Shown: positions 27,649 to 46,816, counted from the first letter of the stretch. The stretch: DNA of 46,816 nucleotides from an uncultured Bacilli bacterium (GCA_947600015.1 CANQFX010000002.1:1-46816), one strand, 5' to 3'. The notes: a model not told the origin generated them from the sequence alone. Program-made: numbers and translations.

Positions 27649-27772
27649 GTGTCTTTTTTGACATAAATTAATTTTTATCGTATAATAGGAACCGTTTTTA
27701 TAGGAATTCCGAAAATAATCTTTTTATTTTTCTGTTTATTTGATAAAATATACACAGTATGGAGTTGATAAT

Positions 27773-28321
27773 ATGTTAAGAACCAAAGATATTTTAGATG
27801 AAAAAGATCAAAGACTAAGAATTATTAGTAAGAATGTTGAATTTCCTCTTACCAAAAAAGATAAAGAAGCAATTCAAAAAATGATTGATTATTTGCATGA
27901 TAGTCAAATCGAGGAATTATCTGAAAAATATGATTTAAGACCAGGAATTGGTATGGCAGCCATTCAATTAGGAATTCCGAAACGCTACTTTGTTATTGTT
28001 CATGAATATGAAGAAGGAAAATTTGATACTTATGTATTAATCAACCCTAAAATCATTAGTAATTCCGAAGAACAAATCTATGTCGAAACGGGAGAAGGAT
28101 GCCTCAGTGTTAATCGTCCTGTAGAGGGAATTGTCCCAAGATATGCTAGAGTAAAATTAGAAGCTTATGATATGGATGGAAATAAAATTCAAGTAAGAGC
28201 ACGAGAAGAATTGGCTGTAGCATTTCAACATGAATTAGATCATTTAAATGGAATTATGTTTACAGACCATATTGATAAAAACAATCCATTCAAAGGAAAA
28301 GACCAGATGCGAGCTATCTAG
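27773..28321 (+). CDS. def: Peptide deformylase (copy 1)
   Basis: It has the PDF motifs GIGMAAIQLG, EGCLS and HELDHLNG. The ATG at 27773 follows a GGAG. Confidence 0.92.
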   Translation: MLRTKDILDEKDQRLRIISKNVEFPLTKKDKEAIQKMIDYLHDSQIEELSEKYDLRPGIGMAAIQLGIPKRYFVIVHEYEEGKFDTYVLINPKIISNSEEQIYVETGEGCLSVNRPVEGIVPRYARVKLEAYDMDGNKIQVRAREELAVAFQHELDHLNGIMFTDHIDKNNPFKGKDQMRAI

Positions 28322-28331
28322 TCTTTTTTAT

Positions 28332-31280
28332 TTATCCTACATGTTCTTCTAATTTGACACTTACTAATTTAGAAACGCCGGACTCTTGCATGGTAATTCC
28401 ATATAATGTATTGGCATATTCCATTGTTTTTTTCTTGTGTGTAATAATTAAAAATTGAGTTTTATCTTTATAATGTTCTAAATATTCACCAAATTGAGCA
28501 ACATTTGCCTCATCTAAGGCTGCTTCTACTTCATCAAACAAACAAAATGGTACCGTCTTAACATTTAAAATAGCAAACAATAAAGAAATTGCTGTTAAGG
28601 TTTTTTCTCCACCAGATAAAAGAGAAATGGTAGTTAATTTCTTTCCTGGAGGAGAAGCTACAATTTCCACTCCCGTTGTTAACATATCCTCTGGATTGGT
28701 CAGTTTTAAATCCGCATTTCCACCATGAAATAATTCCTTAAATACCTTACGAAATTCTGTTTGGATTGCATAAAATGTATTTTCAAATTCTTCTTTCATC
28801 ACTTCATCCATTTCATTCATAATTTCTAACAAAGTATTTTCTGCTTGAAATAAGTCTTCTTTTTGCTTTGTTAGGAACTCATAACGAGTATTAACATTTT
28901 CATATTCATCAATTGCATTTAAATTTACCATGCCAATTTGTTTAATATTTGCTCGATATTGATTTACTTTTTTTCTTGCTTCTTCAACTTCAATATCTAA
29001 TTCATAATCACTCGCAGCTTTCTCATAAGTTAACTCATAATCTTCATTTAACGTCTGAAGCATCGTATCTAGTTTCATATTACAAAGAGAAATGTTCATT
29101 TCTAAATCGTGTATTTCTTTTTCTAATATCTTTCTTTGACTATTTTTTACTTTATCTTCTGCTTGCGCTTGTTCTATTTCCTCTTTTAGTGCTTCTAACT
29201 CTTTTTCTATTGCTTTCCATTTCAAATGGATTTGTTCTTTTTCCGCATTCTTCTCATGAAACATCTCAATCAATTTCTGTTCTTTATCACCAATGGAGTG
29301 ATTTTGAATGGAAGAAATATTTTCCCATTCCTTGGTTATTTCATTTTGTTTTTGTTGATATTCTTCTTCTTCTTTTCGTCTTGTATCATATCGTTCTTTT
29401 AATACTACTTTCTCTCTTGTTAAAACATATTCCTTTTCTTCTAACAAAGAAATTTCTTTATTACAAGTGTCTAGTTCTCTTTCCTTTTCTCGTACCTCTT
29501 GTTGTAATTTTTTTTCTTGCTCTTCCATATGTGTTAATTCTTGTCTTAACATGACTCCACTTCTTGCTTGAGAAAAAGAACCTCCTGCCATAGAACCTCC
29601 AATATTTACAACATCTCCATCTAACGTAACGATTCGATATTTTTTATGCGTAAGAAAAGAAAGTCTCATAGCAGCATCCATGGAAGGAGCAACTAAAATC
29701 ATTCCAAATTGATTTAATATGATATTTTCATATTTTTTATTATAAGTAAGAAAATCACTTAACACTCCTAAAAAATCTTGATTATTTTTTAATAATTGAA
29801 GGGTTTGATAATCAACTTCTCTAGCCTCAATGACATTTAATGGGAAAAAAGTAGCTCTTCCTAAATGATGATCTTTTAAATAGGAAATTGCTTTCTTTGC
29901 ATCTTCTTCTGTTGTGGTAATGATAAAATTTTTATTGGTAAAAGATGCCACTTGAAAGGCCTTATAGTAAGTATCTTCTGTAGTAATAATATTTCCAATG
30001 GTATTGTGAATTCCGTTTAAAGAAACTTCTTTTACTACTGACCGTACGCTATTTGGCATATCTAATCCCTGTTCTATTTGTTCTTTTAATTGCGAAATTT
30101 TATGTTTTAATTGAATTAAATCTTGAGAATTTTTTGAATAAAGGCTCATGATCATATCTTTTTTTGATTTCCTATGATTCATTTCTTGATTTAACTGTTC
30201 TTGCTCTTGTTCTTTTTTCTTTTAATCTTCTATAATTAACTTTAAATCTTCCTTTATTGTGGCAAGATTTCCTTCTATTTTAGACTTTTGTTCTAAAAGA
30301 ATGCGACTTTCTTCTTTTAATTCATTCTCTTCTTTCGTCGTTTTGCTTTGTTCTTTTAATAATTTTTTTTCTCCATGAATCCGTTCTACTTCTTCTGTTA
30401 CTTTTAATAATCGTTCATTTAAATCCTGTTTTTCTTTTTCTAATTGTTCTAGTCGGTAATGATTTTCTATCATCTTTGCATCATTTTTTGAGGTATCACT
30501 GGAAAGTAAAAGTAATTCTTGGTCTTTTTTTTCCTTGTCTTTTTGTTCTTCTTCTAATTGCATGTGAATATGAGAAATATCATATGCTAACAAGGCAACT
30601 TCATAGTGATCTAATCCTTTTTTATTTTCTAAATAGAAAAGGGCATCTTCTCTTTGTTCTTTTAAAGGGGCAAGTTGCAAATCAAGTTCATGGATAATGT
30701 CATTTACCCGATCCATATTGTTGTGCGTTTTTTCTAACTTCCGTAGTGCCTCTTCTTTTCTTTTTCTATATTTTAATATACCAGAAGCCTCTTCAAAAAT
30801 CACTCTACGGTCACTAGCAGAATGACTTAAAATTTTATCTACTTCCCCCTGTGAAATAATATTAAAAGATTCTTTTCCCATTCCCGTATCCATTAATAAA
30901 TTATTAATATCTTTTAGTCTACAACGTTCTCCATTTAGATAATACTCATTTTCTCCACTACGATATACTTTTCTTTTCAAGGAAATTTCTGTATAAGGAA
31001 CATTTAAAAAGTGATCTGTATTATCAAAAATTAGTTCTACAGAGGCAACATTTAACGCTTTTCTACTTTTACTTCCAGAGAAAATAACATCGCTCATAGA
31101 ACCTTCTCCACGAAGAGATTTTACTGATTGTTCTCCTAAAACCCAACGAACGGCATCTACTACATTACTTTTTCCAGAACCATTTGGTCCTACAATACAC
31201 GTGTTTTTTCCATCTAGAGAAATTGTTAATTTATCGGCAAAAGATTTAAATCCATTTGCAATAATCCCTTTTAAGTACAT
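28332..31280 (-). pseudogene. smc: Chromosome partition protein SMC (copy 1) interrupted by one in-frame TAA at 30222..30224
   Basis: ORFs 30222..31280 (N-terminal head, Walker [10 protein letters not shown]) and 28332..30182 (hinge GRATFFPLN, signature LSGGEK, Walker [12 protein letters not shown]) are in the same frame, since 31280-30182=1098=3x366. The minus strand reads ...ATA GAA GAT TAA AAG AAA AAA GAA CAA... Read through, the gene would be 982 codons, against 980 aa for copy 2. Confidence 0.85.
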
Positions 31281-31403
31281 ACATCTTCACCCTAGATTAA
31301 GTATACTATATTTTTACAATATTTGAAAAGGTTTGATTCTAAATTTCTTATTTTTATAACCTCTAATTTATGATATAAGGATTTCTCATGGTTTATCCAC
31401 TAA

Positions 31404-31512
31404 AATTTTAACACTAGTATTTAAAGTGCTATAAGCAATACTACTAGATAAGACACAAACGATAATAATTATATACATCCCATTACAATAACTCTTTTTT
31501 GCTTTTTTTCAT
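31404..31512 (-). pseudogene. Truncated, frame-broken remnant of a paralogue of the 1658..2302 gene
   Basis: The ATG at 31512 gives MKKSKKELL-stop. One frame over reads MYIIIIVCVLSSSIAYSTLNTSVKIL, which matches IYVMITVCILSSSIAYSALNASVKIT of the intact gene. Homology stops after about 40 codons. Confidence 0.7.
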
Positions 31513-31568
31513 TTTACCACTCCTTTTTTCTTCTATCCAAATTATCCCTCCTCTACAATTTTGTTAAA

Positions 31569-31593
31569 CAAAAAAGAGATACTCTTGTATCTC
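31569..31593 (-). terminator. Rho-independent terminator after the giant glucan-synthase gene
   Basis: The minus strand reads GAGATACAAGAGTATCTC followed by TTTTTTG. The stem is 7 bp. Confidence 0.6.
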
Positions 31594-31605
31594 AATGTGC
31601 AATTA

Positions 31606-34600
31606 TTATTTTATTGTCACTTTTATTTGATGAAGTTTTTCATCATCTACTAAATCAATAGAATTGCTAATTTGTCTTTTTCTATCTAAAACTACTTTTT
31701 CTTCTGTTCCTTTGACAAATTCAATATGATATTTTGTATTTTGATACTGATAATCTACTTCATAATTACTCCAAGAAGATGGTACTTTAGGAGAAAAAGT
31801 CAATTTTTTACCGTTGCGTTTTAAACCCAAAATATCGCGAATCGCTACTCGGTAGAACCATGCTGCAGAACCAGTATACCAAGTCCAACCTCCTCGTCCT
31901 GGATAAAATTCAGAAGAATAAATATCAGCTGCAATTACATAAGGTTCAACTTGATAAACAGAGGTATCCTCTTTGTTTTTCGTACGATTGATTGGATTTA
32001 TCATCTGATAGTAAGAATAGGCACGTTCTTGATATCCTGATTGAATTAGTGCCATTAAATACCAAGCAACAGCATGTGTATATTGTCCTCCATTTTCACG
32101 AATTCCTTTTGGATAACTCATAATATATCCTGGATTATTTAAAGATTTTTCAAAAGGAGGAGTTAATAGTTTAATAATATGGTGATCTTGATCTACTAAA
32201 TTTTTTTCTACTGATTCTATTACTTTCTCACAACGTGATTTTAAAGCAACTTTACTTAAGATAGAAAAACTTTGAGAAATTAAATCAATCTTACATTCTT
32301 TATTCTCATGACTACCTAATTTATCACCATTGTCAAAAAATGCACGTAAATAATACTCTTTATCCCAAGCTTTTTTATTTAAATTCTCTGCTAATTTCTC
32401 GTTAAATAAAAGATACTCATCCACTTTGAATTTTCGATCATACTTTTTCATGATTTTAATAAAGTTATCCATTGTTTGATATAGGAAGAAACCAAGCCAT
32501 ACACTTTCTCCTTTGCCTTTAATGCCTACTTTATTCATTCCATCATTCCAATCCCCTCCTCCCATCAGAGGTAGTTTTCTAGGACCCAAATGATTCATTG
32601 ATAATTGTAATGAACGGATACAATGCTCTAAAAGTGTTTCTTCTTCAGAAGAATATGAGAAGACAATTCCTTTTTCATGTTCATAATCACTTAATTTTTC
32701 GCCTACAACATAAGGAATTTTTTCTTCTAATATGCTTTGATCTCCTGTAACCTCAATATAATGATTGGTTGCATAAACTAACCATAAATAATCATCCTGA
32801 TAACGGCTTCGAAGTCCAAATCTATTTTTTTCATGCCACCAATGTAGTACATCGCCTTCTAAAAATTGATGTTTCGCATTAATTAAAATTTGTTTTCTTG
32901 TAAATTCTGGAAAAACATCGACAATATTCATTGCATCTTGCAACTGATCACGATACCCAAAAGCACCACTTACTTGATAAAATCCTGCTTTTGCCATAAT
33001 TCTAGATGATAGTGTCTGATATAAGTACCAGCCATTTACCATATAATCGAAACTCTTATCTGGTGTTTGAATTTGGATTTGATGCAATCCGTGATACCAT
33101 TTTTCTTTCACTAATTTTAATTCTTCACTTACTGCTTTTGGATTTTTATATTTCGCAAGATATTCTTTTTCACTGCCATCACCTTTACTACAGCCAAGCA
33201 TAAAGACAATCGTTTTTTCTTCCTGAGGAGAAAAGACAAGTTTTGTGGTAATACTCTTTCTTAAAATTTGAGTAGTTTCACAGCTCGTTATTTCCTCACT
33301 AGAGGACATAAACGTATTGACATCTCCATAATTGATACTGTAAACATTACGCATCTTTAAATAATTATCATTTCCCATAAATTCTGTCAAAATATGTCTT
33401 GCAGTTTTTTCTTCAAAATTTCCAAATGTTGGGTTAATCCAAAAAGATACGTTTAATTCTTTTACTTCTTTTTGCTTGTTCTTTATTTTCATCAAATAAA
33501 ATTTAATTGTATCTTCTACTGCTACAAACTCGGTAATTTCTGTTTTTAACTCTGATGTTTCATTTTCTAAAATACTATAACCAAATCCATGTGTACATTT
33601 TTCTGGATCAAATAATTTCCCATCAAATTCAAAGCCTTCTGACTTATCATTTACTACCATTTCATTGGTCCATGATGTCAGTTTAAATTCACCCGAATTA
33701 TAAGCATAAGTATATCCACAACCATTATTTGTAATAATCGTACCAAAATTAGGATTCGCAATGACATTCGACCAAGGTTTTGGTGTGTTTTTATTATAAA
33801 TCACATATTCTGTTCCTTCTTTTTTGAATCCACCAAAGCCATTATCAAAGGTAAGGGTTTCTTTTGGAAGAGGAATACTTTCTTGTAATATTTGAATATT
33901 TTCTTTACTACGTTTATTTTTCTTTTGTAATTCTAATACTGCTTCTTGTAAAGACATATGATTTTCAATGACAAAACGTAATCTAGGAACCATATTTAAA
34001 AGACTCTTTTCTTCTCTACTTATTTCACTATTAGAAATTACTTTAATTACTCCAGGAGTATGATAAAAATTATTTAATGCATACATCCGATAGATTTCAT
34101 CATCAATTTCTTTTTGAACAATTTTTGCATAGGCATTTGTTTCACTATTAATAATCATAATATCTACAAAAATAGATTGATTTTTATAATATTCAAATGC
34201 TTTTAAAATTTCTAAGACAAAAGGTAAATCACTAATATCACTAATTTCTACCGAAATAATAGGACGGTCTCCACTAATACCAAATTTCCAAAGACCACTT
34301 TGTCCTAATGCATTTTTACGAAGTAAATCCATTCGTTCTTCATTTACCGAAATTCTTGTTGTCTGATATAAGTAATTTAACATCATGTTAAATACTCGCA
34401 TTTGTTCTCCTGTAATGTTTAATACTTTGGTTCTCATCATATTCATTAAAGTAGAAATTGGAAAGGCTTTTTCTAATGAAGGAATCTCTTGATAGGAATT
34501 TAAAAATTCATAAATTTGTTCTTTACTTCTACCAAAACCTATTAATAGATAAATACTCTTCTCACTATTGGCTGGTAAAATCATTTGATTTCTTAAACTC

Positions 34601-37600
34601 ATAATTGGATCTAAATTATCACCACTATAATTAGAAAGTGACTGATTTAATGCCTTAGGGTTACTGATGAGTCCATTTCTACCTAAAAAATTACTACGTT
34701 CTGTTTCATAAGAATATGGAATTAATGCCTCTGGAATAAAGAGTCTTTGTACCATATAACTATTTATATTACTACCACTTCGATTTTTTCGTTTGGCAAT
34801 TAAAGCACCATAGTCTGCATCATATTCTGTAGAAATAAACATATTGTGAAAAGCACGATGAGAAACATCATCCATGTTTTCTGATAAAATTACTTCTGTA
34901 TAGGTAGTTAATTCTAGTCTTTTTTCTGTATCTGATTCGTTTTTAAAAGTAACTTTTCTAATTTCACCATGATGACTCTTTGTCACTACAATTTCTGTTT
35001 TGGTTGATATTTTACCATCACTACGTAAAAATTTAATTTTATCTGAAGCAAAAACCACTTCGTATTGATCAGGCTTTTTATTGATAGGAGCATAAGTATT
35101 ACTATATACATAATTTGTATCTAAATCTTTGATATAGAGAAATATTCCATAATCTTGTTCTGTAATTTTACGATAACGATTTAACTGGAGCGTACGATAT
35201 CTAGAAAAACTATTTCCACGATCATTCATTAACAGACAATATTTTTGATTTGATAATACACTGACTTCTGGCATATAAGAAATATAATGGAAAGTACGAA
35301 TATCATTTTCAATTTGTTCTTTTTGATAATCATATTTTTTATATCTAGCCATTTTCATATCAATATTTGTTTTTACTTGGACTTTTTCTTTTAATAAAAT
35401 ATCAAATGTTTTTATCGCTACATTTTGGTGAAAGTATTTTTTAATCACATCTTTTTTTAAATAATTGGTAAGTCCTAATAAACTCATTCCTTGATGATGG
35501 GCAAAATATGCTTTTACGATTTCATTGTTATCGTAATCATAAGCTTCATAAAGACCATATGTTCCCTCTAATCCTAAGTTTTTAAATTTAGATATGTTAT
35601 TATACACATCTTCTGGAAATAACTCTAATGCCATTAGGGAAGAATATGGTGAAAGAACAATACGATTTTGTTTTTCTTCTTTTGCTTTTAAATATGGTGT
35701 AGAAAAAGCACGATATTTATAGTTAAGAGAATTATCTAATTCACTATAAGCAGATTCACTAATTCCCCATGGTAATTTGTAAGAAACACTATTGATATAG
35801 TCTTTTTGACAAAAATGTGCAAATTGATACGTTTCATCTAATAAAGTATTTGCATAATTTTTCATAAATAATAGTGGCATAAAATATTCAAATGAAGTAC
35901 CTGACCAAGAAATTAGACCTTTTCTTCCTTTATAAGTAGTTAAGGATTTATCTAGACAAAACCAATGCTTACTAGGAATATCTCCTAGACAAATCGCAAG
36001 ATAACTTGTAAGTCGAGATTCACTTGCAAATTTATTGTAATTATAAATAGAAAGTTTGGCTTCTTTTTCATCATAACCAATACTAAATACATTATTTTTG
36101 GTATAGAGTTTTTTAAAGTTTGTATGAGAGATTAGCTTATCACATAAAGAAATTAATTTTTCTGTAGAAAATTGTTTTAAAAATTCTCGTACGACAATTA
36201 AACAAGCAACTAAGTTCCCAGAATCTACAGTAGATACAAAGGCTGGTTCTAGTACTTTTCCTGTTTTCAATTCATACCAATTATATAAATGTCCGTGCCA
36301 CTTTTTCAAAGAATCTACGCTTTTTAAGACCTGTTCTAATAATGATAAAGCCTCTTCTTTAGAAATAAATTCTAATTCATAGGCAGAAACAATACTTACA
36401 AGTGAAAAACCAATGGCGGTAGGTGAAGTTCTAAAGTCTGTTTTTTCCTCTCGATTTTCTTGGTAATTATCGGGGATTAAATAATGATTTTCACTTGTCA
36501 AAAAGTCAGAAAAATAATTCCAAGTTTTGTGTGCCAATTCTGTTAATTCTTCTATTTTTTTCTCTTTGAGTTCGATTTGATTTTTATCAATATCTTGACT
36601 TACAAAATATAAAATAAAAGGAGCAGATAAGAAAACAAAAGCAAGAATTAAAATCTCATAACGTAAGGAACAAAAGAAGAAAATAAATAAGAACGCAGAA
36701 AGAATAAGATTAGGTAGAAATGTTTTAATGTGACTATATAAATCTTTCTTACTTTTTTTCGATGCTTCTTCTGCTGTTGTCCAATTTAATAAATTTTTGT
36801 GACTAATCGTCAAGCGATAGATTGTCTTAAAAAAAGCATCTAAATATAGCACACTATAAAATGGTAAACTGGCAAATACAATATAAGCACGAAGTAGTAA
36901 ACTTTTTCCACCAAAAAATAGATTTTTATAATATACGGTTGTCTTTTCTTTTCCTTTCCGATATACCTTACTACGTAAGAAAAACAAAATAGGTAGTGCA
37001 ATTTCTAACAAGACTAATCCAAGCCACCAAACAAAGGAAGTTTTACTAAAAAACAAGGATAAAAGTACAATCAAAAGCAACATTGGTTGTAAAAACATCC
37101 GCGCAAGATTATCAAATATTTTATATTTACCAAAGAATGAAAGAGGATTTTTTTCTTTTTTTCCAGCTTTGTTTTTCACATGAGGAAAAAGCCAACCACT
37201 AATTTGTGTATCTCCTCTAGCCCAACGATGATGTCTTGTAATATCTGTTAAGAATCTAGAAGGAAAATCATCGATTAATTCTACATCACATACATAGGCA
37301 CATCGTAAATAATTCCCTTCTAATAAATCATGAGATAAAATCAAATTGTCAGGGAAACGATTTCCTAAAACTTCATCAAATACCTCTAAATCATAAATTC
37401 CCTTACCAATAAAATTTCCTTCTAAAAAAGCATCTTGATATACATTAGGAACAATAGAAGAATAGGTATCAAATCCCCCAATTCCCGCAAAAATTTGACT
37501 ATATAAACTACGATTGGTTGCTTCAATATCTACACTAATACGTGGTTGCATCATCCCATAACCTAAAATAACTTTATTTCTTTCTTTATTTAAAACAGGT

Positions 37601-39255
37601 TTGTTAAATGGATGTGCCATTGCTCCTACTAGATTTAATGCTGTATTTAAAACTAATTTCGTATCAGCATCTAATGTAATAACATATTTAATAGAAAGAT
37701 TTTGATTTTCTAAAGTATTAACGTGAAAATATTTATGGCTTTCCTTTTCTTTCATCTTTCCTAATAAAACCTGGTTAAATTGTAATAATGCCCCTCTTTT
37801 TCTTTCATATCCTAAATAAGAATTTTCACTTTCGTTCCAAATTCTTTTACGATACATAAAATAAAATAAATCTTTTTGATATTTTTGATTTAAATTTTTG
37901 GCATATTCTTCCCCATACTTAGAAATTTCTTCATCAAATGGCATTATTTCCTGATTACTTGCTTTCGCATCTCCTAATAATGTAAAATACAAGTTATCTG
38001 TTTGATTAATTAAATAGAACGTTTCTAAAGTATCAAACATTTCTTTTATTTTTTCTTTGGTAGAAAGGATTGTAGGAATTACTACCATCGTTTTATCTGT
38101 CTCTGGAATTCCCTTTGAAAAATCCAATTTTAATAATGGATAAGTGGGAAGAAAGGAAAGAAGAATTTGATTTACTATTTGTATTATTAATTGGCTTACA
38201 GGAATTAACAAAAGTAAAAATCCTAACATCTTTATAGGAAGAAAATAAAAGGATAACAAAGCACTAACTAAAATACTACTTAATGCAATTCCTAATACAT
38301 AAAGAAAGGAATAGAAACTACGTGATTTTCTTTTAAAAAGTAAAAATCCTATGTGATATTGATCTCGATTCGCTTGGTCAAATAAGGAATCCAAATATTC
38401 TAATTCACTGGTATGATGCTTCTTAGCTAAATGAATTAACTGCCTCCGGTAAAGATATTTTGATTCATTCGTCATTTTTGCATAGATCTCATCTTCCATG
38501 AATCTTTTTTCTGTTTTAGAAACTTTTTCAAATAAATCTTCTTCTGAAAATTGGAAAAACTCTTTTAAGTCATTAAATATATTTGATACTAAAATATCAT
38601 TTTCCATCTTTTTTTGATACTCATCATTAATCAATTCCTTTAGACTAACATTTTTTTCTTCTAAATACTGATTCAATTCTTTAAATATTTTATTTCCTTT
38701 GGCACCTAAATCTTTTAATTGATAATTTAATTCAAAAATATAATTATAATTTTTTTCTAGATTAAAGTCATCTTTAATAAATGTTTTTAAAGAGATTTCC
38801 TTTTCGCTTTTTTCTCTAATTATTTTAGAGATTATCTCTTTATCTAGCAATTTGCGATGCTCTTCTTCACAAACGAAAAAAAGGCGTTCAGTATAAATTA
38901 AAACTAAAATTGATTTTATACTTTCTAATTCTTCATAAGAAAAATTTTTTTGTGTTTCTTTTTGATATTTTTTTAATTCTCCTGACAATGTTTTAAAATC
39001 AATATTATAATTATGACTTCCTACAATCGTTTTTAAACAGAAATAAATATTAGAATTTTTATGTAGTCTTTTGTTTATGGATTTTTTTTGTTGTATCATA
39101 TTTAATTTATGTTCTACTAACAAATAAAAATTGTCAATAATCCACTCATTAGTAATTCCTACATATTCTAATTTCTTTGTTTTTTCTACTAAAAAATTAT
39201 AATATTGATTAATTTGCTCAAACTGATTTAAAAATTTTTTTAAAAGTCTTGTCAT
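31606..39255 (-). CDS. Cyclic beta-1,2-glucan synthase-like multidomain protein (GT84-type transferase, cyclisation-like domain, GH94 phosphorylase domain)
   Basis: 2549 aa. TM clusters lie at about aa 310-370 and 720-880. The glycosyltransferase part carries ITLDADTKL (DxD) and RHHRWARGDTQ. The middle domain carries GHLYNWYELKTGKVLEPAFVSTVDSGNLVACL, as in NdvB/Cgs proteins. The C-terminal GH94-type part carries GGGDWNDGMN and ENGGQYTHA. Confidence 0.8.
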   Translation of the reverse strand: MTRLLKKFLNQFEQINQYYNFLVEKTKKLEYVGITNEWIIDNFYLLVEHKLNMIQQKKSINKRLHKNSNIYFCLKTIVGSHNYNIDFKTLSGELKKYQKETQKNFSYEELESIKSILVLIYTERLFFVCEEEHRKLLDKEIISKIIREKSEKEISLKTFIKDDFNLEKNYNYIFELNYQLKDLGAKGNKIFKELNQYLEEKNVSLKELINDEYQKKMENDILVSNIFNDLKEFFQFSEEDLFEKVSKTEKRFMEDEIYAKMTNESKYLYRRQLIHLAKKHHTSELEYLDSLFDQANRDQYHIGFLLFKRKSRSFYSFLYVLGIALSSILVSALLSFYFLPIKMLGFLLLLIPVSQLIIQIVNQILLSFLPTYPLLKLDFSKGIPETDKTMVVIPTILSTKEKIKEMFDTLETFYLINQTDNLYFTLLGDAKASNQEIMPFDEEISKYGEEYAKNLNQKYQKDLFYFMYRKRIWNESENSYLGYERKRGALLQFNQVLLGKMKEKESHKYFHVNTLENQNLSIKYVITLDADTKLVLNTALNLVGAMAHPFNKPVLNKERNKVILGYGMMQPRISVDIEATNRSLYSQIFAGIGGFDTYSSIVPNVYQDAFLEGNFIGKGIYDLEVFDEVLGNRFPDNLILSHDLLEGNYLRCAYVCDVELIDDFPSRFLTDITRHHRWARGDTQISGWLFPHVKNKAGKKEKNPLSFFGKYKIFDNLARMFLQPMLLLIVLLSLFFSKTSFVWWLGLVLLEIALPILFFLRSKVYRKGKEKTTVYYKNLFFGGKSLLLRAYIVFASLPFYSVLYLDAFFKTIYRLTISHKNLLNWTTAEEASKKSKKDLYSHIKTFLPNLILSAFLFIFFFCSLRYEILILAFVFLSAPFILYFVSQDIDKNQIELKEKKIEELTELAHKTWNYFSDFLTSENHYLIPDNYQENREEKTDFRTSPTAIGFSLVSIVSAYELEFISKEEALSLLEQVLKSVDSLKKWHGHLYNWYELKTGKVLEPAFVSTVDSGNLVACLIVVREFLKQFSTEKLISLCDKLISHTNFKKLYTKNNVFSIGYDEKEAKLSIYNYNKFASESRLTSYLAICLGDIPSKHWFCLDKSLTTYKGRKGLISWSGTSFEYFMPLLFMKNYANTLLDETYQFAHFCQKDYINSVSYKLPWGISESAYSELDNSLNYKYRAFSTPYLKAKEEKQNRIVLSPYSSLMALELFPEDVYNNISKFKNLGLEGTYGLYEAYDYDNNEIVKAYFAHHQGMSLLGLTNYLKKDVIKKYFHQNVAIKTFDILLKEKVQVKTNIDMKMARYKKYDYQKEQIENDIRTFHYISYMPEVSVLSNQKYCLLMNDRGNSFSRYRTLQLNRYRKITEQDYGIFLYIKDLDTNYVYSNTYAPINKKPDQYEVVFASDKIKFLRSDGKISTKTEIVVTKSHHGEIRKVTFKNESDTEKRLELTTYTEVILSENMDDVSHRAFHNMFISTEYDADYGALIAKRKNRSGSNINSYMVQRLFIPEALIPYSYETERSNFLGRNGLISNPKALNQSLSNYSGDNLDPIMSLRNQMILPANSEKSIYLLIGFGRSKEQIYEFLNSYQEIPSLEKAFPISTLMNMMRTKVLNITGEQMRVFNMMLNYLYQTTRISVNEERMDLLRKNALGQSGLWKFGISGDRPIISVEISDISDLPFVLEILKAFEYYKNQSIFVDIMIINSETNAYAKIVQKEIDDEIYRMYALNNFYHTPGVIKVISNSEISREEKSLLNMVPRLRFVIENHMSLQEAVLELQKKNKRSKENIQILQESIPLPKETLTFDNGFGGFKKEGTEYVIYNKNTPKPWSNVIANPNFGTIITNNGCGYTYAYNSGEFKLTSWTNEMVVNDKSEGFEFDGKLFDPEKCTHGFGYSILENETSELKTEITEFVAVEDTIKFYLMKIKNKQKEVKELNVSFWINPTFGNFEEKTARHILTEFMGNDNYLKMRNVYSINYGDVNTFMSSSEEITSCETTQILRKSITTKLVFSPQEEKTIVFMLGCSKGDGSEKEYLAKYKNPKAVSEELKLVKEKWYHGLHQIQIQTPDKSFDYMVNGWYLYQTLSSRIMAKAGFYQVSGAFGYRDQLQDAMNIVDVFPEFTRKQILINAKHQFLEGDVLHWWHEKNRFGLRSRYQDDYLWLVYATNHYIEVTGDQSILEEKIPYVVGEKLSDYEHEKGIVFSYSSEEETLLEHCIRSLQLSMNHLGPRKLPLMGGGDWNDGMNKVGIKGKGESVWLGFFLYQTMDNFIKIMKKYDRKFKVDEYLLFNEKLAENLNKKAWDKEYYLRAFFDNGDKLGSHENKECKIDLISQSFSILSKVALKSRCEKVIESVEKNLVDQDHHIIKLLTPPFEKSLNNPGYIMSYPKGIRENGGQYTHAVAWYLMALIQSGYQERAYSYYQMINPINRTKNKEDTSVYQVEPYVIAADIYSSEFYPGRGGWTWYTGSAAWFYRVAIRDILGLKRNGKKLTFSPKVPSSWSNYEVDYQYQNTKYHIEFVKGTEEKVVLDRKRQISNSIDLVDDEKLHQIKVTIK

Positions 39256-39276: not shown

Positions 39277-39305
39277 AGTATATCATAAAATCAATCTTTT
39301 TCCAA
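39277..39305 (-). promoter_or_regulatory. Putative promoter TTGGAA-N17-TATACT for the glucan-synthase gene
   Basis: The minus strand reads TTGGAAAAAGATTGATTTTATGATATACT. An AGGAG RBS lies downstream of it, 9 nt upstream of the ATG. Confidence 0.45.
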
Positions 39306-39337
39306 AAAAAGAAACTGCAAAAATCATACAAAATCCG

Positions 39338-39368
39338 AAAAAAAAACTATTAATCAAAAATTAATAGT
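39338..39368 (-). terminator. Rho-independent terminator of tRNA-Ser
   Basis: The minus strand reads ACTATTAAT-ttttg-ATTAATAGT (9-bp stem) followed by T8. Confidence 0.65.
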
Positions 39369-39379
39369 ATTTTTCGTAA

Positions 39380-39470
39380 TGGCGGAGTAGGAGAGATTTG
39401 AACTCTCGCGCCAGTTGCCCGACCTACACCCTTAGCAGGGGCGCCTCTTCAGCCTCTTGAGTACTGCTCC
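39380..39470 (-). tRNA. tRNA-Ser (anticodon GCU), class II with a long variable arm and encoded CCA
   Basis: The minus strand reads GGAGCAGTACTCAAGAGGCTGAAGAGGCGCCCCTGCTAAGGGTGTAGGTCGGGCAACTGGCGCGAGAGTTCAAATCTCTCCTACTCCGCCA (91 nt). The T arm is GAGAG/CTCTC and the anticodon loop is CUGCUAA. The acceptor stem has a C5:A68 mismatch. Confidence 0.9.
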
Positions 39471-39491
39471 ATATCCAAGTGCGATAAATAA

Positions 39492-39520
39492 ATTTTACAA
39501 TACTTAGCGCACCATGTCAA
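39492..39520 (-). promoter_or_regulatory. Promoter TTGACA-N17-TAAAAT for tRNA-Ser
   Basis: The minus strand reads TTGACATGGTGCGCTAAGTATTGTAAAAT. It ends about 20 nt before the mature tRNA 5' end. Confidence 0.6.
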
Positions 39521-39552
39521 TATTAGTATTAATAATTTTTGCAAGATTATGC

Positions 39553-40425
39553 TTAATTACCTATAATAACATTACGAATATTTTCAATATTTGTTTGCAT
39601 TAAAGTATAATAGTTTTCTTTGTTTTTGCGATCGTCTTCTTTTATTGTGGCCATAACTTTCATTGGTACAGCTTGGGCTTTATAATTATTGATTAAGTTT
39701 GTTGCTATTTCACTTTGTTCTTTATCATCTCTGGTTAGTATATATTTGTATGTGCCATTTTGGAAGTTTTTTTGAATAGTTGCTAAAGAGTTAGGAGTAA
39801 TATTTTCTTCATCTTCTAGAGAAATTACTTGATAACCATATTTTTTATAAAAATTAAAAATATTAGAATCAACTACGAGAGTCGGATTATCAACATTAGC
39901 AGCAATAATTCGCAATTCGGCATCCATTTGCGATACTTCTGTTTTTAGTTCTTTATAATTTTCTTCAATTGTTTCTGTTGCATATTTGCTATTTAATATT
40001 TCCATTAAATTATCTTTGACGGTAGCAGATAACATTAAAAAGTTACTTGGACTTAACCATAATTCTTCAGCCCCATTTTCTAATGCTAAACCATATGAAA
40101 CATCAATTATTTTTAATTTATTATTTTTATTGATTAACTTTTGAGCGATATCTTTTTCATCAGTTAATCCATTATAGATAAAGATACTTCCTAGACTATA
40201 ATCGTTTAATTGTTTATTTGTTAATTTATAATCGGTTGGATTGCTACCATCAGGGAATATTGAACTTATTTCCACATTTTCCCCATATAAAGTATCTGCT
40301 AAAAATTCTATGGGATAAACTGTAGTATAGATTTGTTCTTGCTTTTCCACTAAAATTTTATTTTCACAACTTGCTCCTAAAAATAAAACTCCAATAATAA
40401 CTAATAATCTTAAAAACTTTTTCAC
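39553..40425 (-). CDS. TroA/ZnuA-fold (cluster A-I) substrate-binding lipoprotein homologue lacking the metal-ligand histidines
   Basis: It has a GTG start after AGGAGG and a lipobox (LFLGASC). [12 protein letters not shown]...[11 protein letters not shown] aligns to the ZnuA segment YP.Y.F...G...P.G.EPHDYE, and ELWLSP aligns to DPHxWLSP. No ABC permease or ATPase gene lies adjacent. Confidence 0.6.
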
Positions 40426-40655
40426 ATTTTTTCCTCCTTTTTAGGTACTGGATCATAACCAAAAGTACCTAGAGGTCGACACCTCAATATTCTTTTGATA
40501 GCTAAGAAACTTCCTTTAAATGCTCCGTAAGTTTCGATTGCTTCAATGGCATAATTAGAACAAGTGGGAGTAAAACGACAACTTTGATGAGAACTTACGG
40601 GAGTAATTTGATATAATTTAATGATTCTAATTAAAAGACGTTTCATTAGCTTCAC
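40422..40655 (-). CDS. yidD: Membrane protein insertion efficiency factor YidD
   Basis: 77 aa with the typical C.F.P(T/S)CS.Y pattern ([37 protein letters not shown]). Its stop overlaps the GTG of the downstream lipoprotein gene (GTGA). Confidence 0.88.
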
Positions 40656-40789
40656 CTCTTATAGTTTACTATAAATAGTCATTTTTGTAAAATGGATTCC
40701 ATCTTATTATTTTGGAAAAAATAGTATTTTAAAAATTAAAATAGACCTTAAAGGCCTTTTCTGTTATAATGATTAAAGGTGAAGATAAA

Positions 40790-41437
40790 ATGCATTTTTT
40801 AGATAAATACGGAATTAAATTTCAAAATGAAACATTAATAAATACGGCATTAACGCATAGTTCCTACAGTAATGAACATGGTGGGGAAAACTACGAACGC
40901 CTAGAGTTTTTAGGGGATGCCGTTTTACAAATTATTATGAGTGAATATTTATTTAAAAATACATCTTATCCGGAAGGTAAAATGAGTAAAGTGCGTGCTA
41001 GTTTTGTTTGTGAACAAGCTTTAAGAATTTATTCAGAAGATTTAGGATTAATTCCATTTATAAAAGTAGGGCATGGTGAAGAAAAAAGTATTTCTGATAA
41101 TATTATTGCTGATATTTTTGAAAGTGTTTTAGGAGCAGTTTATTTAGAATTTGGATTAGATAAAGCTAAAGAAATAATCTATGACATTGCTATTCCTTAT
41201 GTTAAAGATAATCATATTTTCTTAGGTGATTATAAATCTTTGCTTCAAGAGTATACGCAAACAACTCGTAATTCTTTAGAGTATGTTTTAATCAAGGAAA
41301 CTGGTCCTTCTCATAATAAACGTTTTGAAGTCATTGTGAAAATTGACGATATAATATATGGCAAGGGTGTAGGAAAAAGTAAAAAAGAAGCTGAACAAAA
41401 TGCAGCTTATGATGCTTATTTAAAAATTGCTAAATAG
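40790..41437 (+). CDS. rnc: Ribonuclease III
   Basis: It has the signature ERLEFLGDAV and a C-terminal dsRBD (PSHNKRFEV...GKGVGKSKKEAEQNAA). The tracked ATG at 40769 lies inside a TGtTATAAT extended -10 (40762..40770), so I prefer the ATG at 40790. Confidence 0.92.
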   Translation: MHFLDKYGIKFQNETLINTALTHSSYSNEHGGENYERLEFLGDAVLQIIMSEYLFKNTSYPEGKMSKVRASFVCEQALRIYSEDLGLIPFIKVGHGEEKSISDNIIADIFESVLGAVYLEFGLDKAKEIIYDIAIPYVKDNHIFLGDYKSLLQEYTQTTRNSLEYVLIKETGPSHNKRFEVIVKIDDIIYGKGVGKSKKEAEQNAAYDAYLKIAK

Positions 41438-41449
41438 GAAGTGATTTAG

Positions 41450-44392
41450 ATGTATCTTAAAAGTATTAAATCGCATGGATTTAAATCTTTTGCTGATATT
41501 ACTGAAATAGATTTAAAAGAAGGAATAACGGGCATTGTTGGTCCTAATGGTAGTGGTAAAAGTAATGTAGTTGATGCAGTTAAATGGGTTTTAGGTGAGC
41601 AATCAATTAAAGCTTTAAGAGCAACTAATTCCATGAGAGATGTTATTTTTGCCGGAAGTAAATCACGAAAAGCTATGAATAGAGCTTATGTGGCTCTAAC
41701 TTTTGATAATAGCGATAAATATTTACATACGGAATTTACAACAGTAGAAGTAAAGCGCGTATTATATAAAACCGGCGAAAACGAATATTTTATTAATAAT
41801 GCTAAAGTGCGCCTTAAGGATATAACTGATTTATTTATTGATAGTGGAGCGGGAAAAGAATCGTTTAATATAATTTCCCAGGGTTCAGTGGCTGATGTAA
41901 TTAATAGTAAACCCGAAGAAAGAAGAGTGATTTTTGAAAGTGCGGCGGGCGTTTTAAAATATAAAAAACGTAAAGAGGAAACAAATCGCAAGCTTTTAAA
42001 AGTAAAGGACAATTTAGAAAAAATTGATTTAATTATTGCCGAACTCGAAGATAATCATCAACATCTAGAACACCAAGCGACAATTGCCCAAGAGTATTTG
42101 ACTAAAAAAGAAGAATTAAAAAATCTCGAGGTTGCTTTAATTGCTCAAGAAATCACGGATATTAATAGCAATTACAAAACTTTAAAAAATGAAGTTGAAA
42201 AATTAAATAAAGAGCTTGAAAATGTTAATTTAGCTAATAATGAAGAAAGCGTTAAGATTGAAAGCTTAAAATTAGAAAATGTGAAAATCGATGAAAAAAT
42301 AGCCTCTGTTAATGAAGAAATTATTGCTTTATCTAAAGAGATAGCTGATTTAAATAGTCAAAAGCAACTAACAATCGAAAGACAAAAATATGAAGCTAAT
42401 TCCTCCTCATTGCAAAACAATTTAATTAATTTAAAAGAAGAAGAATTAACGATTCAAAAAAATATTGAAAATTTAAAAAAAGAGTTAGAAATTCTTCAAA
42501 AAGAGCTAAAAGAAAAAAATAGTAAATATCAAACTATTTTAAAAGAATATCAAACAAAAGTCATGAAAAGTGAAGAATACAATACAAAGCTTCTAAATAA
42601 AAATAAAGAACAATTAAATTTGACCAATCAAATAGAAATATTAGAAAGTAATATTGAAAATAGTGAAAAATTACCATTAGCAGTTAGAGGAGTTTTAAGT
42701 AATCCGCGGCTTACTGGCATTCATAATACAATCGGAAAAATAATTGAAGTTGATGATAAATATGCCACAGCAATCGATATAGCTTTAGGATATTCGGCAA
42801 ATATTATAGTCGTTGATAATGAAAGTAGTGCGAAAGTAGCAATTAATTACTTAAAAGATAACAAATTAGGAAGAGCGACTTTCTTTCCTTTAAATGTTAT
42901 TAAACGAAAATTTATTGATAATACAACAATGAATATTTTAAAAAGTACGCCGGGTTTTATTAATGTTGCTCATAATCTTGTTAAAAATGACCCAATATAT
43001 GTGGAAATAGTCGAAAATCAATTAGGTAATGTTATTATTGTCGATAATATTGACTCTTTAAATAAAATAGGCAAACTCATCAATTATCGCTATCGTATTG
43101 TCTCTTTAGATGGAGAGATTTTACATACAGGTGGCGCTATTTCTGGGGGAACTTTTAAAAATAGTAATAGTACAATTATGCAAAAGGAAAAGCTTAATAA
43201 ATTAAAAAGTACGATGGCTAATATGACGATAGAAATAAATAACATTAATGAAGTAGTTGCTAAAAATGCGGAAGAAGTAAAAAAATGGCATGAAGAAGTT
43301 ACTAAATTAAATAGCGAAGTTATGACAGTTCAAGAAAAGGTTAATCGTAAAAAGATTTCTTTAAATGACTTAGAAGAAAAATATAGAGCTAAACATAATG
43401 AATTTTTAGGGGCTCAAAATATTAAAGACAATAAACTAGACGAAAATTTAAATAAATTATTGGAAGAATATTATCAAAAAACGAGTAATAAGGATTTATT
43501 AGAGAAAGAATTAAATAATTTAAAAGCTCGAAAAAATACTATATTTTTAGAACTAAATGATTTAGAAAAAGCTAATCGTGAAAAAAATAGCAATTATAAT
43601 ACGAAGATTCAAGAGTTAAAAACTAAAGAAATCGAAATAGGAAAAATGGATGTTCATTTAGATAATCTTCTAAATATTTTAAATGAAACATATAATATGA
43701 CATATGAGAAAGCAGTTGCTAGTTATTCCTTAGATGTAGAACAAAATTTAGCAGCGCAAATGGTTACTAAGCTCAAAAAAACTATTTTAAATTACAAAGA
43801 TGTTAATACTGGAGCAATTGAAGAATTTAAACGAGTTCATGAAAGATATTCTTTCTTAACTAATCAAAAAAATGATTTGGAAACTTCTATCGTTAACTTA
43901 GAAAACATTATTACGGAGATGGATAATATAATGGTAGAACGTTTCAGTAAGACGTTTACTAAAATTGAAGTGGAATTTCAAAAAGTTTTTCAAAAGTTAT
44001 TCAAAGGCGGCATGGGGACTTTAAAGTTAACTGATCCTGATAATATGTTGGAAACAGGAATTGAAATTATTGCCGAACCTCCTGGAAAGAAATTAAATTC
44101 TATTGGCCTTTTGTCAGGCGGTGAGAAAACTTTAACTGCAATTTCCTTATTATTTGCGATATTAAATGTTAACCCTGTTCCTTTTGTTATTCTAGATGAA
44201 GTTGAGGCAGCCTTAGATGAAGCTAATGTGGATATGTTTGGTAATTATTTAGCTGAAAAAAAAGATAAAAGTCAATTTATAATTATTACGCATAAGAAAA
44301 AAACTATGGAATTTGCTGATGTCTTATATGGAATTACAATGCAAGAGAGTGGTATTAGTAAATTAGTTAGTGTAAAATTAGAAAACTTATAG
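41450..44392 (+). CDS. smc: Chromosome partition protein SMC (copy 2, intact)
   Basis: 980 aa with Walker A (GPNGSGKSN), long coiled coils, hinge (GRATFFPLN), signature (LSGGEK) and Walker B ([11 protein letters not shown]). It sits directly downstream of rnc, the canonical Bacillota arrangement. Confidence 0.93.
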
Positions 44393-44427
44393 TATAATAA
44401 GAACAAAAGTTAGGTGGGGGATATATA

Positions 44428-45306
44428 ATGAAGAAAGAGAAAATAATGACAATTAAATATTATGTTATATTAATATTGTTATTGCTTTCTCTTTTTGTTG
44501 CCCTAATTTATGTCAAAAAAGTTTATAGAGTAAAAAATGTAACGAAAGTAAAAATAAAAGAAACAAAGAAAGAAGCGACTCAAGAACCTGAAGCAACTTA
44601 CGAGGATTTGGATGTAAATAGTGATTTAATTAAAGAATTAACAAACAAAGTATCAGGCTTTGATTCTATAAAAGCGGGTAGTTATTATGGCTATTTTTAT
44701 CAAAATAATTATTTGGATTTGAATAGCATTTCTGATGATGCTAAAATTGCTATTGGTATTACGCAAAATGAAAATTTTAAAAGTGATTTTATCAATGCGA
44801 CTTATGAAGCCGCGGCTCCTGATGGTAATAAACTTAATGTCATAATCTTAGCCAAAAAAGAAATTCAAGAGGGCATAAATGATTTTTTTGGTCCAAATAC
44901 AACTTATAAAGATACTAATTTAAAAGATGCCGATAAATATTATTGTGGTTTTTCAGGGTTTAAATTTGATGAAACCCGTAATGTTTATATGAATAATCCA
45001 ATTAGCTGCGCAAATTTTCCGGAAGATTATATTGATACTAAAGTAGTTAAAGCTCAAAAAAAGGGAAAAGTCATAGAATTTATTTTAAAAATAGCTTATA
45101 TAAAATACGAAGTAATTGATACTGATAATGTTATTAAATATGTTTATAAAAGTAATAATTCCGAAAATTATTTGGAAAAACATAATATTTTAACCGATAA
45201 TTCTTATGAGATTACCAATATATTAAATAAACTAGATAGTTTTAAATTTACCTTTAAATTACACAGTAATAATTATTATTATTTTGATAAAGTCGAAAAA
45301 CTCTAA
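44428..45306 (+). CDS. Membrane-anchored extracytoplasmic protein of unknown function
   Basis: 292 aa with a strong RBS (GGTGGGGGA) and one N-terminal TM helix (YYVILILLLLSLFVALIYV). I recognise no motif. Confidence 0.5.
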   Translation: MKKEKIMTIKYYVILILLLLSLFVALIYVKKVYRVKNVTKVKIKETKKEATQEPEATYEDLDVNSDLIKELTNKVSGFDSIKAGSYYGYFYQNNYLDLNSISDDAKIAIGITQNENFKSDFINATYEAAAPDGNKLNVIILAKKEIQEGINDFFGPNTTYKDTNLKDADKYYCGFSGFKFDETRNVYMNNPISCANFPEDYIDTKVVKAQKKGKVIEFILKIAYIKYEVIDTDNVIKYVYKSNNSENYLEKHNILTDNSYEITNILNKLDSFKFTFKLHSNNYYYFDKVEKL

Positions 45307-45339
45307 AAAAAATACCTTTATGTAATAAGGTATATTTTT
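45305..45339. terminator. Bidirectional terminator between convergent genes
   Basis: An A8 run, then the stem ATACCTT/AAGGTAT, then a T run. Confidence 0.55.
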
Positions 45340-45889
45340 ATATTTCGCGCATTTTATCAATATCTTTATATGGATTATTTTTATCGATTCGATCTGTAAA
45401 TAAGATTCCATTTAAATGATCAATTTCATGTTGAAAAGCTACAGCAATATCTTCTCGAACTCTAATTTGATATTCTTGACCATTTTCATCAAAGGCTTGT
45501 ACAGTAATTCGGGCACATCTTGGCACAATGCCTTCTACTTCACGATTGACACTTAAACATCCTTCACCTTCACCAACATATATTAATTCTTCACTTTGAC
45601 TGATAATTTTGGGATTAATCACAACATAGTTTTTAAAACTACCATCTTCTAATTCTTCGACAATAACAAATATTCTTTTGGGAATACCGATTTGAACATA
45701 GGCTAAACCCATGCCGGCTCTTAAATCGTATTTTTCTCTTTCTTCATCTATTTGCGACATGGTTAAATAAGTAATCATATCTTTAATATCTTGTTTTTGT
45801 TTATCGGTTAAAGGAAAAGAAACTTCCGAACTTTTTTGCCTTAATATTTTATTTTTTTCATCAAATATTTTTATTTTCGGTAATTGCAT
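45338..45889 (-). CDS. def: Peptide deformylase (copy 2)
   Basis: It has the motifs GMGLAYVQIG, EGCLS and HEIDHLNG. The ATG at 45889 (MQLPKIKIF) aligns with the copy-1 N-terminus. The tracked 46-aa extension overlaps the divergent gene that starts at 46004. Confidence 0.9.
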   Translation of the reverse strand: MQLPKIKIFDEKNKILRQKSSEVSFPLTDKQKQDIKDMITYLTMSQIDEEREKYDLRAGMGLAYVQIGIPKRIFVIVEELEDGSFKNYVVINPKIISQSEELIYVGEGEGCLSVNREVEGIVPRCARITVQAFDENGQEYQIRVREDIAVAFQHEIDHLNGILFTDRIDKNNPYKDIDKMREI

Positions 45890-46003
45890 AAATATCACCA
45901 ACCACGCCAATATTTTAACAAAAATCTGATAATAAAGCAAATAAGGTATATTGCTTTTTTCATTATTATAAGATAATATTTTTATAAAGTGGGTGATTTT
46001 AAG

Positions 46004-46816
46004 ATGGCTTTTTGTAATGATTATCACTTTTTAGAAGGGGTACGAATTATATCATTTATTATAACGGTTTTAAGAATAGTTATTCCAATTCTTTTAATTG
46101 GTTTTGGAACATATGATTATTTCCAAACTGTAATAAATCCTGATAAAGCGTCTGCTACTGAAAAAACAAAATCTTTTGTATTTCGTTTAATAAGTGCTTT
46201 TATGATTTTTATTTTACCAACTATAATCAATCTGGTATTTTCTGTAGTTAGTAATTTTGGCGGATCAATGTTAGTCTTAAATGATTGTTTAAAAAATGCA
46301 AATAAGGGATATATTGAACAACTGAAAATTGCTAGTAAAAAACAATTAGAAGAATATGAACAAACAGGACAAAATTATCAATCCAAATATAATCCTGAAA
46401 AATATAAAAATGTAGGAAAAAACGGCGAATTATTAGAGGTAGCTGATAGGTTATGGAAACAAATAGTTAATGGTAATTTTACCTATGGGGGAACCCCAAT
46501 TCCGCCTACAACAACAGTTGATTGTAGTGCATTTGTGACATGGGTGTTAAATGAATATGGCTATGCCGACGAATTTTCTTATCAGCATAATACAGCAAAT
46601 TTTAAGGAAACCAATTGGCAAGAAAAATTTGGTTGGGAAGAAATAGCCGTATCAGCAAATGAAGATGTTACCGCCAAGTTGAAAGCAGGCGATATATTAG
46701 TTAGAGACACAGGTGGGGCTGGACACATGAATATTATTGCTTCTGTTGAGGCAGATGGTACAGTGATGGCGTACGATTGTGGTAGTGCAAGTAATTGGAA
46801 AAATTCCGATGGAGGG
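46004..46816 (+). CDS. Membrane-anchored NlpC/P60- or CHAP-like cysteine peptidase (partial, runs off the window end)
   Basis: My hand translation is open from the ATG at 46004 to the window end (271 codons). It reads MAFCNDYHFLEGVRIISFIITVLRIVIPILLIGFG...(2-3 TM helices)...TYGGTPIPPTTTVDCSAFVTWVLNEYGY...AGDILVRDTGGAGHMNIIAS. This gives a Cys...His arrangement typical of papain-like cell-wall hydrolases. Confidence 0.55.
   Translation, partial: MAFCNDYHFLEGVRIISFIITVLRIVIPILLIGFGTYDYFQTVINPDKASATEKTKSFVFRLISAFMIFILPTIINLVFSVVSNFGGSMLVLNDCLKNANKGYIEQLKIASKKQLEEYEQTGQNYQSKYNPEKYKNVGKNGELLEVADRLWKQIVNGNFTYGGTPIPPTTTVDCSAFVTWVLNEYGYADEFSYQHNTANFKETNWQEKFGWEEIAVSANEDVTAKLKAGDILVRDTGGAGHMNIIASVEADGTVMAYDCGSASNWKNSDGG

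Follow-up and report, generated by a model that had tools for sequence, protein, structure and literature searches.

In Bacillota, the canonical setting of the gene for the chromosome-organising SMC protein is rnc-smc(-ftsY), and the corresponding condensin is Smc-ScpAB. Another described system that comes close to the locus analysed here is an error of metagenome assembly, the inter-genome translocation. Conserved sequence common to several organisms is a recognised cause of such inter-genome misassembly, and inter-genome translocation was the commonest error type in the CAMI benchmarks (PMC9661791). The stretch under study (hereafter the window) is one entire 46,816-bp contig of an NCBI assembly of an uncultured Bacilli bacterium (GCA_947600015.1, CANQFX010000002.1:1-46816), which contains two smc genes and two peptide deformylase (def) genes arranged as two inverted smc-def blocks. 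By sequence comparison, the likeliest explanation of the contig is an inter-genome assembly chimera, produced by a metagenome assembler rather than through biology, and a probability of roughly 0.7 is assigned to this reading. Its long arm (part A, with smc1 and def1) and its short arm (part B, with smc2 and def2) belong to two lineages, A and B, and meet inside a tRNA-Ser(GCT) gene. Coordinates are collected in Table 1.

Two smc-def blocks with different closest relatives

The positions of def1, smc1, smc2 and def2 given in a preliminary description of this contig all match the open reading frame (ORF) map and the translations, as do the 10 nt that separate the end of def1 from the stop of smc1 and the presence of one gene, a 292-aa ORF, between smc2 and the convergent def2. 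Three peptide deformylase motifs, G(I/M)G(M/L)AA/YxQ, EGCLS and HExxH, are readable in both Def1 and Def2 (in Def1 as GIGMAAIQ, EGCLS and HELDH). By Pfam and translation, smc2 has every SMC feature, namely both head halves, Walker A and B, the signature, the hinge and an unbroken frame. The smc1 gene is a single frame of 983 codons (982 sense-codon positions and the terminal stop) with only one internal TAA, at codon 353 (30222-30224). Apart from this codon it is full length and retains Walker A, the hinge, the LSGGE signature and Walker B; as assembled, with its frame broken at codon 353, it does not qualify as an intact SMC gene.

Def1 and Def2 are identical at 113 of 176 residues (64%, E=1e-82), in line with the 60-65% that had been estimated by eye, and SMC1 and SMC2 share 41% identity end to end over ~980 aa, which bears out their description as homologous, well diverged proteins of the ~980-aa type. 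Both similarities are far above chance level. The proteins themselves are ordinary, being short-form SMCs and peptide deformylases whose family motifs are intact except for the stop in smc1, and the rnc-smc pairing on the lineage-B side is canonical. The preliminary description had assigned this context to copy 2, and the gene for RNase III does lie directly upstream of smc2.

The relatives of the two blocks were found in different genomes. Homolog searches for SMC1 and for the protein of the giant GH94-type gene next to the junction covered a database of 5.8 billion proteins; the top matches of SMC1 were 984-aa SMCs from uncultured "Bacilli bacterium" genomes with 67-70% identity (68-70% for those aligned over 100% of the length), and the top match of the GH94 protein reached just 72%. 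These two are the largest proteins of part A, and their top matches belong to another clade than the close relative of part B. Def1 is 73-74% identical to the Def in the same position in two lineage-A relatives (L001 and L002). In these, SMC is followed by variable genes, a convergent Def, FtsW/RodA, DHH, ComEA and ComEC, and the window shows the same gene order from 31.3 to 22.2 kb; smc in L001 and L002 has no rnc upstream. Part B is closely matched by L003, a 104-kb contig of GCA_947629935.1, with a DNA identity (blastn) of 96.8% over 39378-40713 and 94.5% over 40719-46315, and with protein identities from 92.5% (the 292-aa ORF) up to ~99%. SMC2 is 97% identical to its L003 counterpart (P0121), 98% to P0368 and 77% to P0122, from a relative in GCA_947625365.1 (L004). 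P0368 is encoded on an 89.5-kb ENA/Logan contig, whose strain is the nearest one to part B. Def2 is 99.5% identical to the Def of L003, and the exact protein occurs on three independent ENA contigs. In both L003 and L004 the order is ZnuA(-) and YidD(-), then divergently rnc, SMC, the 292-aa gene, Def(-), the CHAP-domain gene, a 56-aa gene and FtsW. An exact look-up of SMC2 and of the C-terminal fragment of SMC1 in the contig index returned no match, and the relatives named here came from homolog searches. The two arms differ in phylogenetic affinity, and in each of them the genes stand in the order native to the lineage concerned.

Between lineages A and B, identity is 41-45% for SMC, 58-64% for Def and 46-48% for FtsW. 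The SMC distance within the window is the ortholog distance between genomes, and because within-window distances equal between-lineage distances, the two blocks are orthologous loci of two lineages and not paralogs. Both lineages carry the same ancestral locus, in the order smc, variable gene, convergent def and ftsW/rodA.

An old inverted segmental duplication within one genome, with subsequent divergence of the copies, had been among the explanations first put forward. It would account for the same gene order in inverted form (smc, spacer, convergent def) and for two SMCs of ~980 aa, but it requires the copies to be each other's closest relatives, and they are not: SMC1 and SMC2 are nearer to proteins of other genomes (70 and 97%) than to each other (41%), and their distance is that of orthologs between lineages. 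Furthermore, the flanks of the blocks match different lineages, with part B at ~95-97% DNA identity to another species up to the tRNA. The duplication was thus rejected and is given next to no probability.

It may also be asked whether this Bacilli group normally possesses both an rnc-linked and an rnc-less smc-def locus as a stable trait. Bacillota often have two peptide deformylase genes, and the two loci share their internal gene order; however, no fetched locus has both types, and L003, at near species-level identity to part B, continues differently past tRNA-Ser. The database holds no SMC1-type protein above 70% identity, so that no assembly of the lineage-B species encodes an intact close copy. 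The mismatched hybrid tRNA and the different composition of the arms (see below) also speak against a stable trait, which is very improbable, as are this explanation and the duplication taken together.

The separateness of lineage B is also seen in protein clusters. Cluster mates from contigs of 104, 89.5 and 9.8 kb, at 92-99% identity, were found for five of six tested part-B proteins (ZnuA is the sole member of its cluster), whereas the 90% clusters of 18 part-A proteins contain no mates from long contigs. Part-A genes were not found on the larger lineage-B assemblies (104 and 89.5 kb). Because part-B proteins cluster with long contigs and part-A proteins do not, the lineage-B species exists by itself without part A.

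A hybrid tRNA-Ser(GCT) gene at the junction

The similarity to L003 ends at window position 39378, the 3' end of tRNA-Ser (blastn). Past its tRNA-Ser, L003 continues with tRNA-Lys, tRNA-Ile, tRNA-Glu and a peptidase M29 gene, whereas the window continues with a hairpin (CTATTAAT-TTTTG-ATTAATAG, then T9) and GH94. The tRNA gene itself is a hybrid. In lineage A (L013, L014 and L024) the 5' acceptor strand GGAGTAG is combined with the 3' acceptor strand CCTACTCCGCCA, pair 5:68 is T:A and the gene reads GGAGTAG...CCTACTCC at its ends; in lineage B (L003) GGAGCAG is combined with CCTGCTCCGCCA, pair 5:68 is C:G and the ends are GGAGCAG...CCTGCTCC. The window gene has GGAGCAG with CCTACTCCGCCA (GGAGCAG...CCTACTCC), leaving a C·A mismatch at 5:68. 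At position 5 (window 39466) it thus has the C of lineage B, and at the partner of this position, linear position 83 (window 39388), the A of lineage A. Between these positions lies a 77-nt core (39389-39465) that is identical in lineage A (L013, L014 and L024) and lineage B (L003), which delimits the junction exactly; the crossover is somewhere within it. The predicted folding of the window tRNA is weaker (-28.5 vs -34.6 kcal/mol).

A scan of metagenome contigs accepted either base at both diagnostic positions, the other 89 nt being identical by design of the pattern. Among the 51 contigs recovered, pair 5:68 was T:A in 49 and C:G in two, and the hybrid tRNA occurred in none (0/51). With L013, L014, L024 and L003 added to these contigs (L096-L146), the C·A mismatch was absent from all 55 other loci.

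It was also observed that pair 5:68 covaries cleanly over the 55 independent loci (T:A in 52, C:G in three), and it can serve to recognise joins between lineages without any reads.

Contigs from other assemblies link the lineage-A side of the tRNA to its flank. In an independent sample, a contig of the same strain (L010; lineage-A flank 99.8% identical) carries the A-type 3' end alongside the GH94 flank, and the same pairing is found in L012, a relative with 72% GH94 identity. L010 ends 27 nt into the tRNA, short of diagnostic position 5, and the closest GH94 relatives (L011 and L012) likewise break at the tRNA. The contigs that end at or inside tRNA-Ser(GCT) are L004, L010, L011, L012, L024 and L122, and such breaks in independent contigs are as an assembly-graph tangle would give.

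Native contexts and composition of the two arms

Each side of the junction has a native context of its own. In lineage A, an Ile-Asn-Glu-Ser(GCT) tRNA array lies immediately upstream of GH94 (L013, L014 and L024, from a GH94-alignment scan of species-representative genomes, among the matches listed), and the tRNA-Ser(GCT) array followed by GH94 is present in at least 25 independent contigs. The context SMC<-rnc / YidD->ZnuA->tRNA-Ser is present in nine metagenome contigs from several lineages, as well as in L003. Among the contexts examined, no locus has ZnuA upstream and GH94 downstream of tRNA-Ser; the window arrangement is an exact fusion of the two context classes at their sole common element.

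Tetranucleotide composition steps at the junction. A comparison of 1-39.4 kb with 39.5-46.8 kb had been advised in the preliminary description; the two do differ, and the boundary coincides with the junction at 39380-39470. All A-B distances (0.031-0.039) exceed the A-A distances (0.013-0.025). The part-B chunk is nearest to L003 DNA that is non-homologous to the window, and the part-A chunks are nearest to lineage-A references.

In many lineage-A contigs, the Ile-Asn-Glu-Ser tRNA array is directly followed by a giant GH94-type gene (~2550 aa) at 49-72% identity; contigs with the array and then the giant gene are among L013-L016 and L097-L144, and their hosts are small low-GC gut Bacilli. The divergent order SMC<-rnc / YidD->ZnuA->tRNA-Ser(GCT) was seen in L096, L100, L110, L112, L113, L126, L137, L142, L145, L003 and L004, in lineages whose ZnuA is just 31-44% identical to that of the window. 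Its conservation over fairly distant lineages suggests that the order is an old one in this Bacilli group.

Two further candidates were tried at the junction region and rejected. A replication origin at the GC-skew switch (~40.5 kb) was dropped because no DnaA-box cluster was found there and the GC skew of L003 simply tracks gene orientation. A tRNA-targeted genomic island was dropped for want of an integrase and an att-like repeat: Pfam found no integrase among the window ORFs, and the 24-nt tRNA 3' end occurs once in the window with three mismatches allowed, where a far boundary could lie beyond the contig.

Assembly chimera or recombination

A chimera of two related genomes was one of the possibilities in the preliminary description and is the one best supported, the join falling in a 77-nt tRNA stretch shared by both lineages and leaving a mismatched hybrid. 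Two uncultured low-GC Bacilli, each with the ancestral smc-def locus, would have been co-resident in one gut sample. Their tRNA-Ser(GCT) genes share 77 identical nt, and the compensating acceptor-stem pair 5:68 is the sole difference between them. Short-read assemblers of the de Bruijn type merge a stretch of this kind into a single node, and the assembly path seems to have entered it through the lineage-A arm (GH94, smc1, def1) and left it through the lineage-B arm (ZnuA, YidD / rnc, smc2, def2). The join would then have been made in silico and not in a cell, and the inverted orientation and the change of GC-skew sign would be mere consequences of how the pieces were joined.

Several points weigh against a chimera. 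If both blocks were in one cell, smc1 would be the redundant copy, and it is there that the sole nonsense codon falls; under a chimera this location is a coincidence, whose chance is put at roughly 1%. Two other samples, ERZ27249252 and ERZ27060228, each contain short contigs that match part A and part B at 100% identity, with similar k-mer coverage (ratios of 1.4-2.5x, which are dominated by the detection limit and were not used as evidence); the co-occurrence fits one organism, and it fits two co-resident organisms near the detection limit too. A further point is that the join falls neatly in an intergenic tRNA, as real recombination would also give; with artefact and recombination alike, a crossover inside the identical core and a hybrid tRNA are to be expected. 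Prevalence does not discriminate between the readings: an asymmetry, with part-A proteins absent from other samples and part-B proteins present, was expected and not found, as small proteins of both arms occur exactly on low-coverage ENA/Logan contigs.

The TAA in smc1 takes the place of a Ser that 39 of 40 orthologs have, and the codon at this position is TCA in L001 and L002. What had been called decay of smc1 is a single TCA-to-TAA change. Under the chimera reading, the TAA would have nothing to do with the join and be either a point variant or an error in the consensus. Recoding of TAA was also considered and dropped, given its one occurrence at a conserved TCA Ser codon.

Real recombination would explain the same contig by uptake of lineage-B DNA into a lineage-A cell. 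At least 7.4 kb (ZnuA-YidD-rnc-smc2-292aa-def2 and beyond) would have been integrated through the 77-nt tRNA-Ser(GCT) core by homologous or homology-facilitated recombination, after which the native smc1, now redundant, gained a nonsense mutation. This would be a xenologous replacement caught early, in which tRNA-Ser still has an uncompensated acceptor-stem mismatch and the SMC donor is diverged at about family level. The junction lies in perfect identity, as RecA-type recombination needs, but the C·A acceptor mismatch that results is present in 0/55 natural loci, and the site lacks the Ile-Asn-Glu array that normally precedes tRNA-Ser in lineage A. Part A contains the competence genes ComEA and ComEC; however, the lineages are far apart (41% for SMC, ~65-70% for DNA), and a housekeeping exchange of at least 7 kb between them should be very rare. 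The state of the two smc genes is as expected after such a replacement, smc1 having exactly one inactivating change (TCA to TAA) and being otherwise intact, as a newly redundant gene would be, and smc2 being intact with its rnc partner. Fragments 100% identical to both arms also co-occur in two more samples at similar coverage, but the larger lineage-B assemblies (104 and 89.5 kb) lack part-A genes, no second junction is seen before the arms reach the contig ends in the order of their own lineages, and the composition of neither arm drifts toward that of the other. Taken together, these points make recombination unlikely, though far from negligible. The earlier proposal of a foreign smc-def block with a decaying redundant smc is thus possible, with the TCA-to-TAA change in smc1 in its favour, and is the less likely reading; if it holds, the foreign block is rnc-smc2-def2, on the short arm that nearly matches another species, and not block 1.

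Other features of the window

Table 1. Features of the 46,816-bp window, in order of position.
Feature	Position	Strand	Description	Basis
Part A	1-39379	-	Chromosomal core-gene block, lineage A	Pfam, gene order, tetranucleotides
BRO-N protein	762-1646	-	Near contig start	
HerA/DUF87-type ATPase	4032-5975	-	Amid cell-division genes	
299-aa ORF	21243-22142	-	Between ComEC and RNase R	Weak Pfam match to IstB_IS21 (AAA+ loader-like), E=1e-8
def1	27773-28321	+	Peptide deformylase, 182 aa; convergent with smc1	Pfam PF01327, E=2e-40
smc1	28332-31280	-	Lineage-A SMC, one in-frame TAA	Pfam SMC_N + SMC_hinge
GH94 / cyclic beta-1,2-glucan synthase-like gene	31606-39255	-	2549 aa	Pfam Glyco_hydro_94, GH94 supersandwich, Glycoamylase
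Terminator-like hairpin + T-run	39336-39379	-	Directly after tRNA 3' end, lineage-A side	Sequence reading
Hybrid tRNA-Ser(GCT)	39380-39470	-	Contains junction; sole tRNA in window	ARAGORN
Part B	39471-46816		Lineage-B segment	blastn to L003, gene order, Pfam, tetranucleotides
ZnuA	39553-40425	-	Part B	
YidD	40422-40646	-	Part B	
rnc (RNase III)	40769-41437	+	Directly upstream of smc2	Pfam
smc2	41450-44392	+	Intact SMC, 980 aa, rnc-smc context	Pfam SMC_N + SMC_hinge
292-aa ORF	44428-45306	+	Between smc2 and def2	
def2	45338-45889	-	Peptide deformylase, 183 aa; convergent	Pfam PF01327, E=5e-39
Partial CHAP-domain gene	~46004 to contig end	+	Part B	

The first 39.4 kb of the window are ordinary chromosome. 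The genes of part A encode BRO-N, RluB-like, HerA-like, DivIVA, SepF, Asn/Asp-tRNA synthetase, GH3, RluD-like, HAD, PAP2, PGI, polysaccharide deacetylase, PNPase, S15, RNase R, ComEC, ComEA, DHH, FtsW/RodA, Def1, SMC1 and GH94 proteins. The BRO-N gene may mark a region, phage-derived or variable, at which the contig breaks. Given its conserved position, the 299-aa ORF may be no insertion-sequence gene but encode a protein of the helicase-loader or DNA polymerase III delta type.

In part B, two spots differ between the window and its relatives. One is found between YidD and rnc, where window 40713-40719 stands against L003 7563-9271: L003 has a 568-aa gene with no Pfam match there and L004 has two ORFs of 322 and 262 aa, but the window has no gene, just an intergenic region of 113 bp. 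Strains therefore differ by an insertion or deletion in the divergent promoter region. Within the CHAP-domain gene, identity to L003 falls from ~95% to ~72% shortly before the contig end (window 46315-46816 against L003 14861-15451), and this cell-wall hydrolase is a strain-variable spot and likely the cause of the contig break. A low-coverage contig that is otherwise 100% identical (L005, ERZ27249252) lacks 62 nt of smc2 (window 42504-42565). The gap follows aa 351, shifts the frame, is flanked by AAAAG microhomology and falls in roughly that part of the coiled coil where smc1 has its TAA (codon 353); it is probably a low-coverage assembly error.

Implications

If the contig is a chimera, it and its genome bin should be split at 39.38-39.47 kb, and the "second SMC" and "second Def" should be kept out of gene-copy and pangenome statistics. 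A compensating pair beside an identical tRNA core would also offer a sharp, read-free marker for joins between genomes. If the join is real, the window would show, at a moment seldom captured, how a core gene of chromosome organisation gives way to a distant foreign ortholog through recombination at a tRNA, and would be of interest for work on how far housekeeping genes can be transferred horizontally.

Comparison with known systems

With respect to the canonical Bacillota rnc-smc(-ftsY) locus and the Smc-ScpAB condensin, smc2 follows rnc directly, and the hinge and both halves of the ATPase head, N- and C-terminal, are present in the two window SMCs. They depart from the canonical locus in that both are of the short form (~980 aa), the lineage-A smc is unlinked to rnc, and ftsY is not downstream in either lineage.

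The sharp break of similarity at the tRNA 3' end resembles the boundary of a tRNA-targeted genomic island or integrative element. However, housekeeping chromosome rather than accessory cargo lies on both sides of the tRNA, and neither an integrase nor a repeated 3' segment accompanies it. Homologous or homology-facilitated recombination at conserved tRNA genes through natural transformation has in common with the window the crossover in an identical tRNA core, the heterologous DNA on one side and the competence genes; the window differs in its one junction, in the about family-level divergence of donor and recipient, and in a mismatched tRNA unseen in natural loci.

The inter-genome translocation misassembly does not predict the nonsense codon in the "extra" smc, but it is the category that the two smc-def blocks fit best. 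The arms differ in phylogenetic affinity and in composition, with different closest relatives for the two flanks and a change of composition at the breakpoint. A conserved sequence that both genomes share contains the breakpoint, and its 77 nt exceed typical short-read k-mers such as 55. Normally single-copy genes occur twice, and the tRNA is a place where other assemblies break as well.

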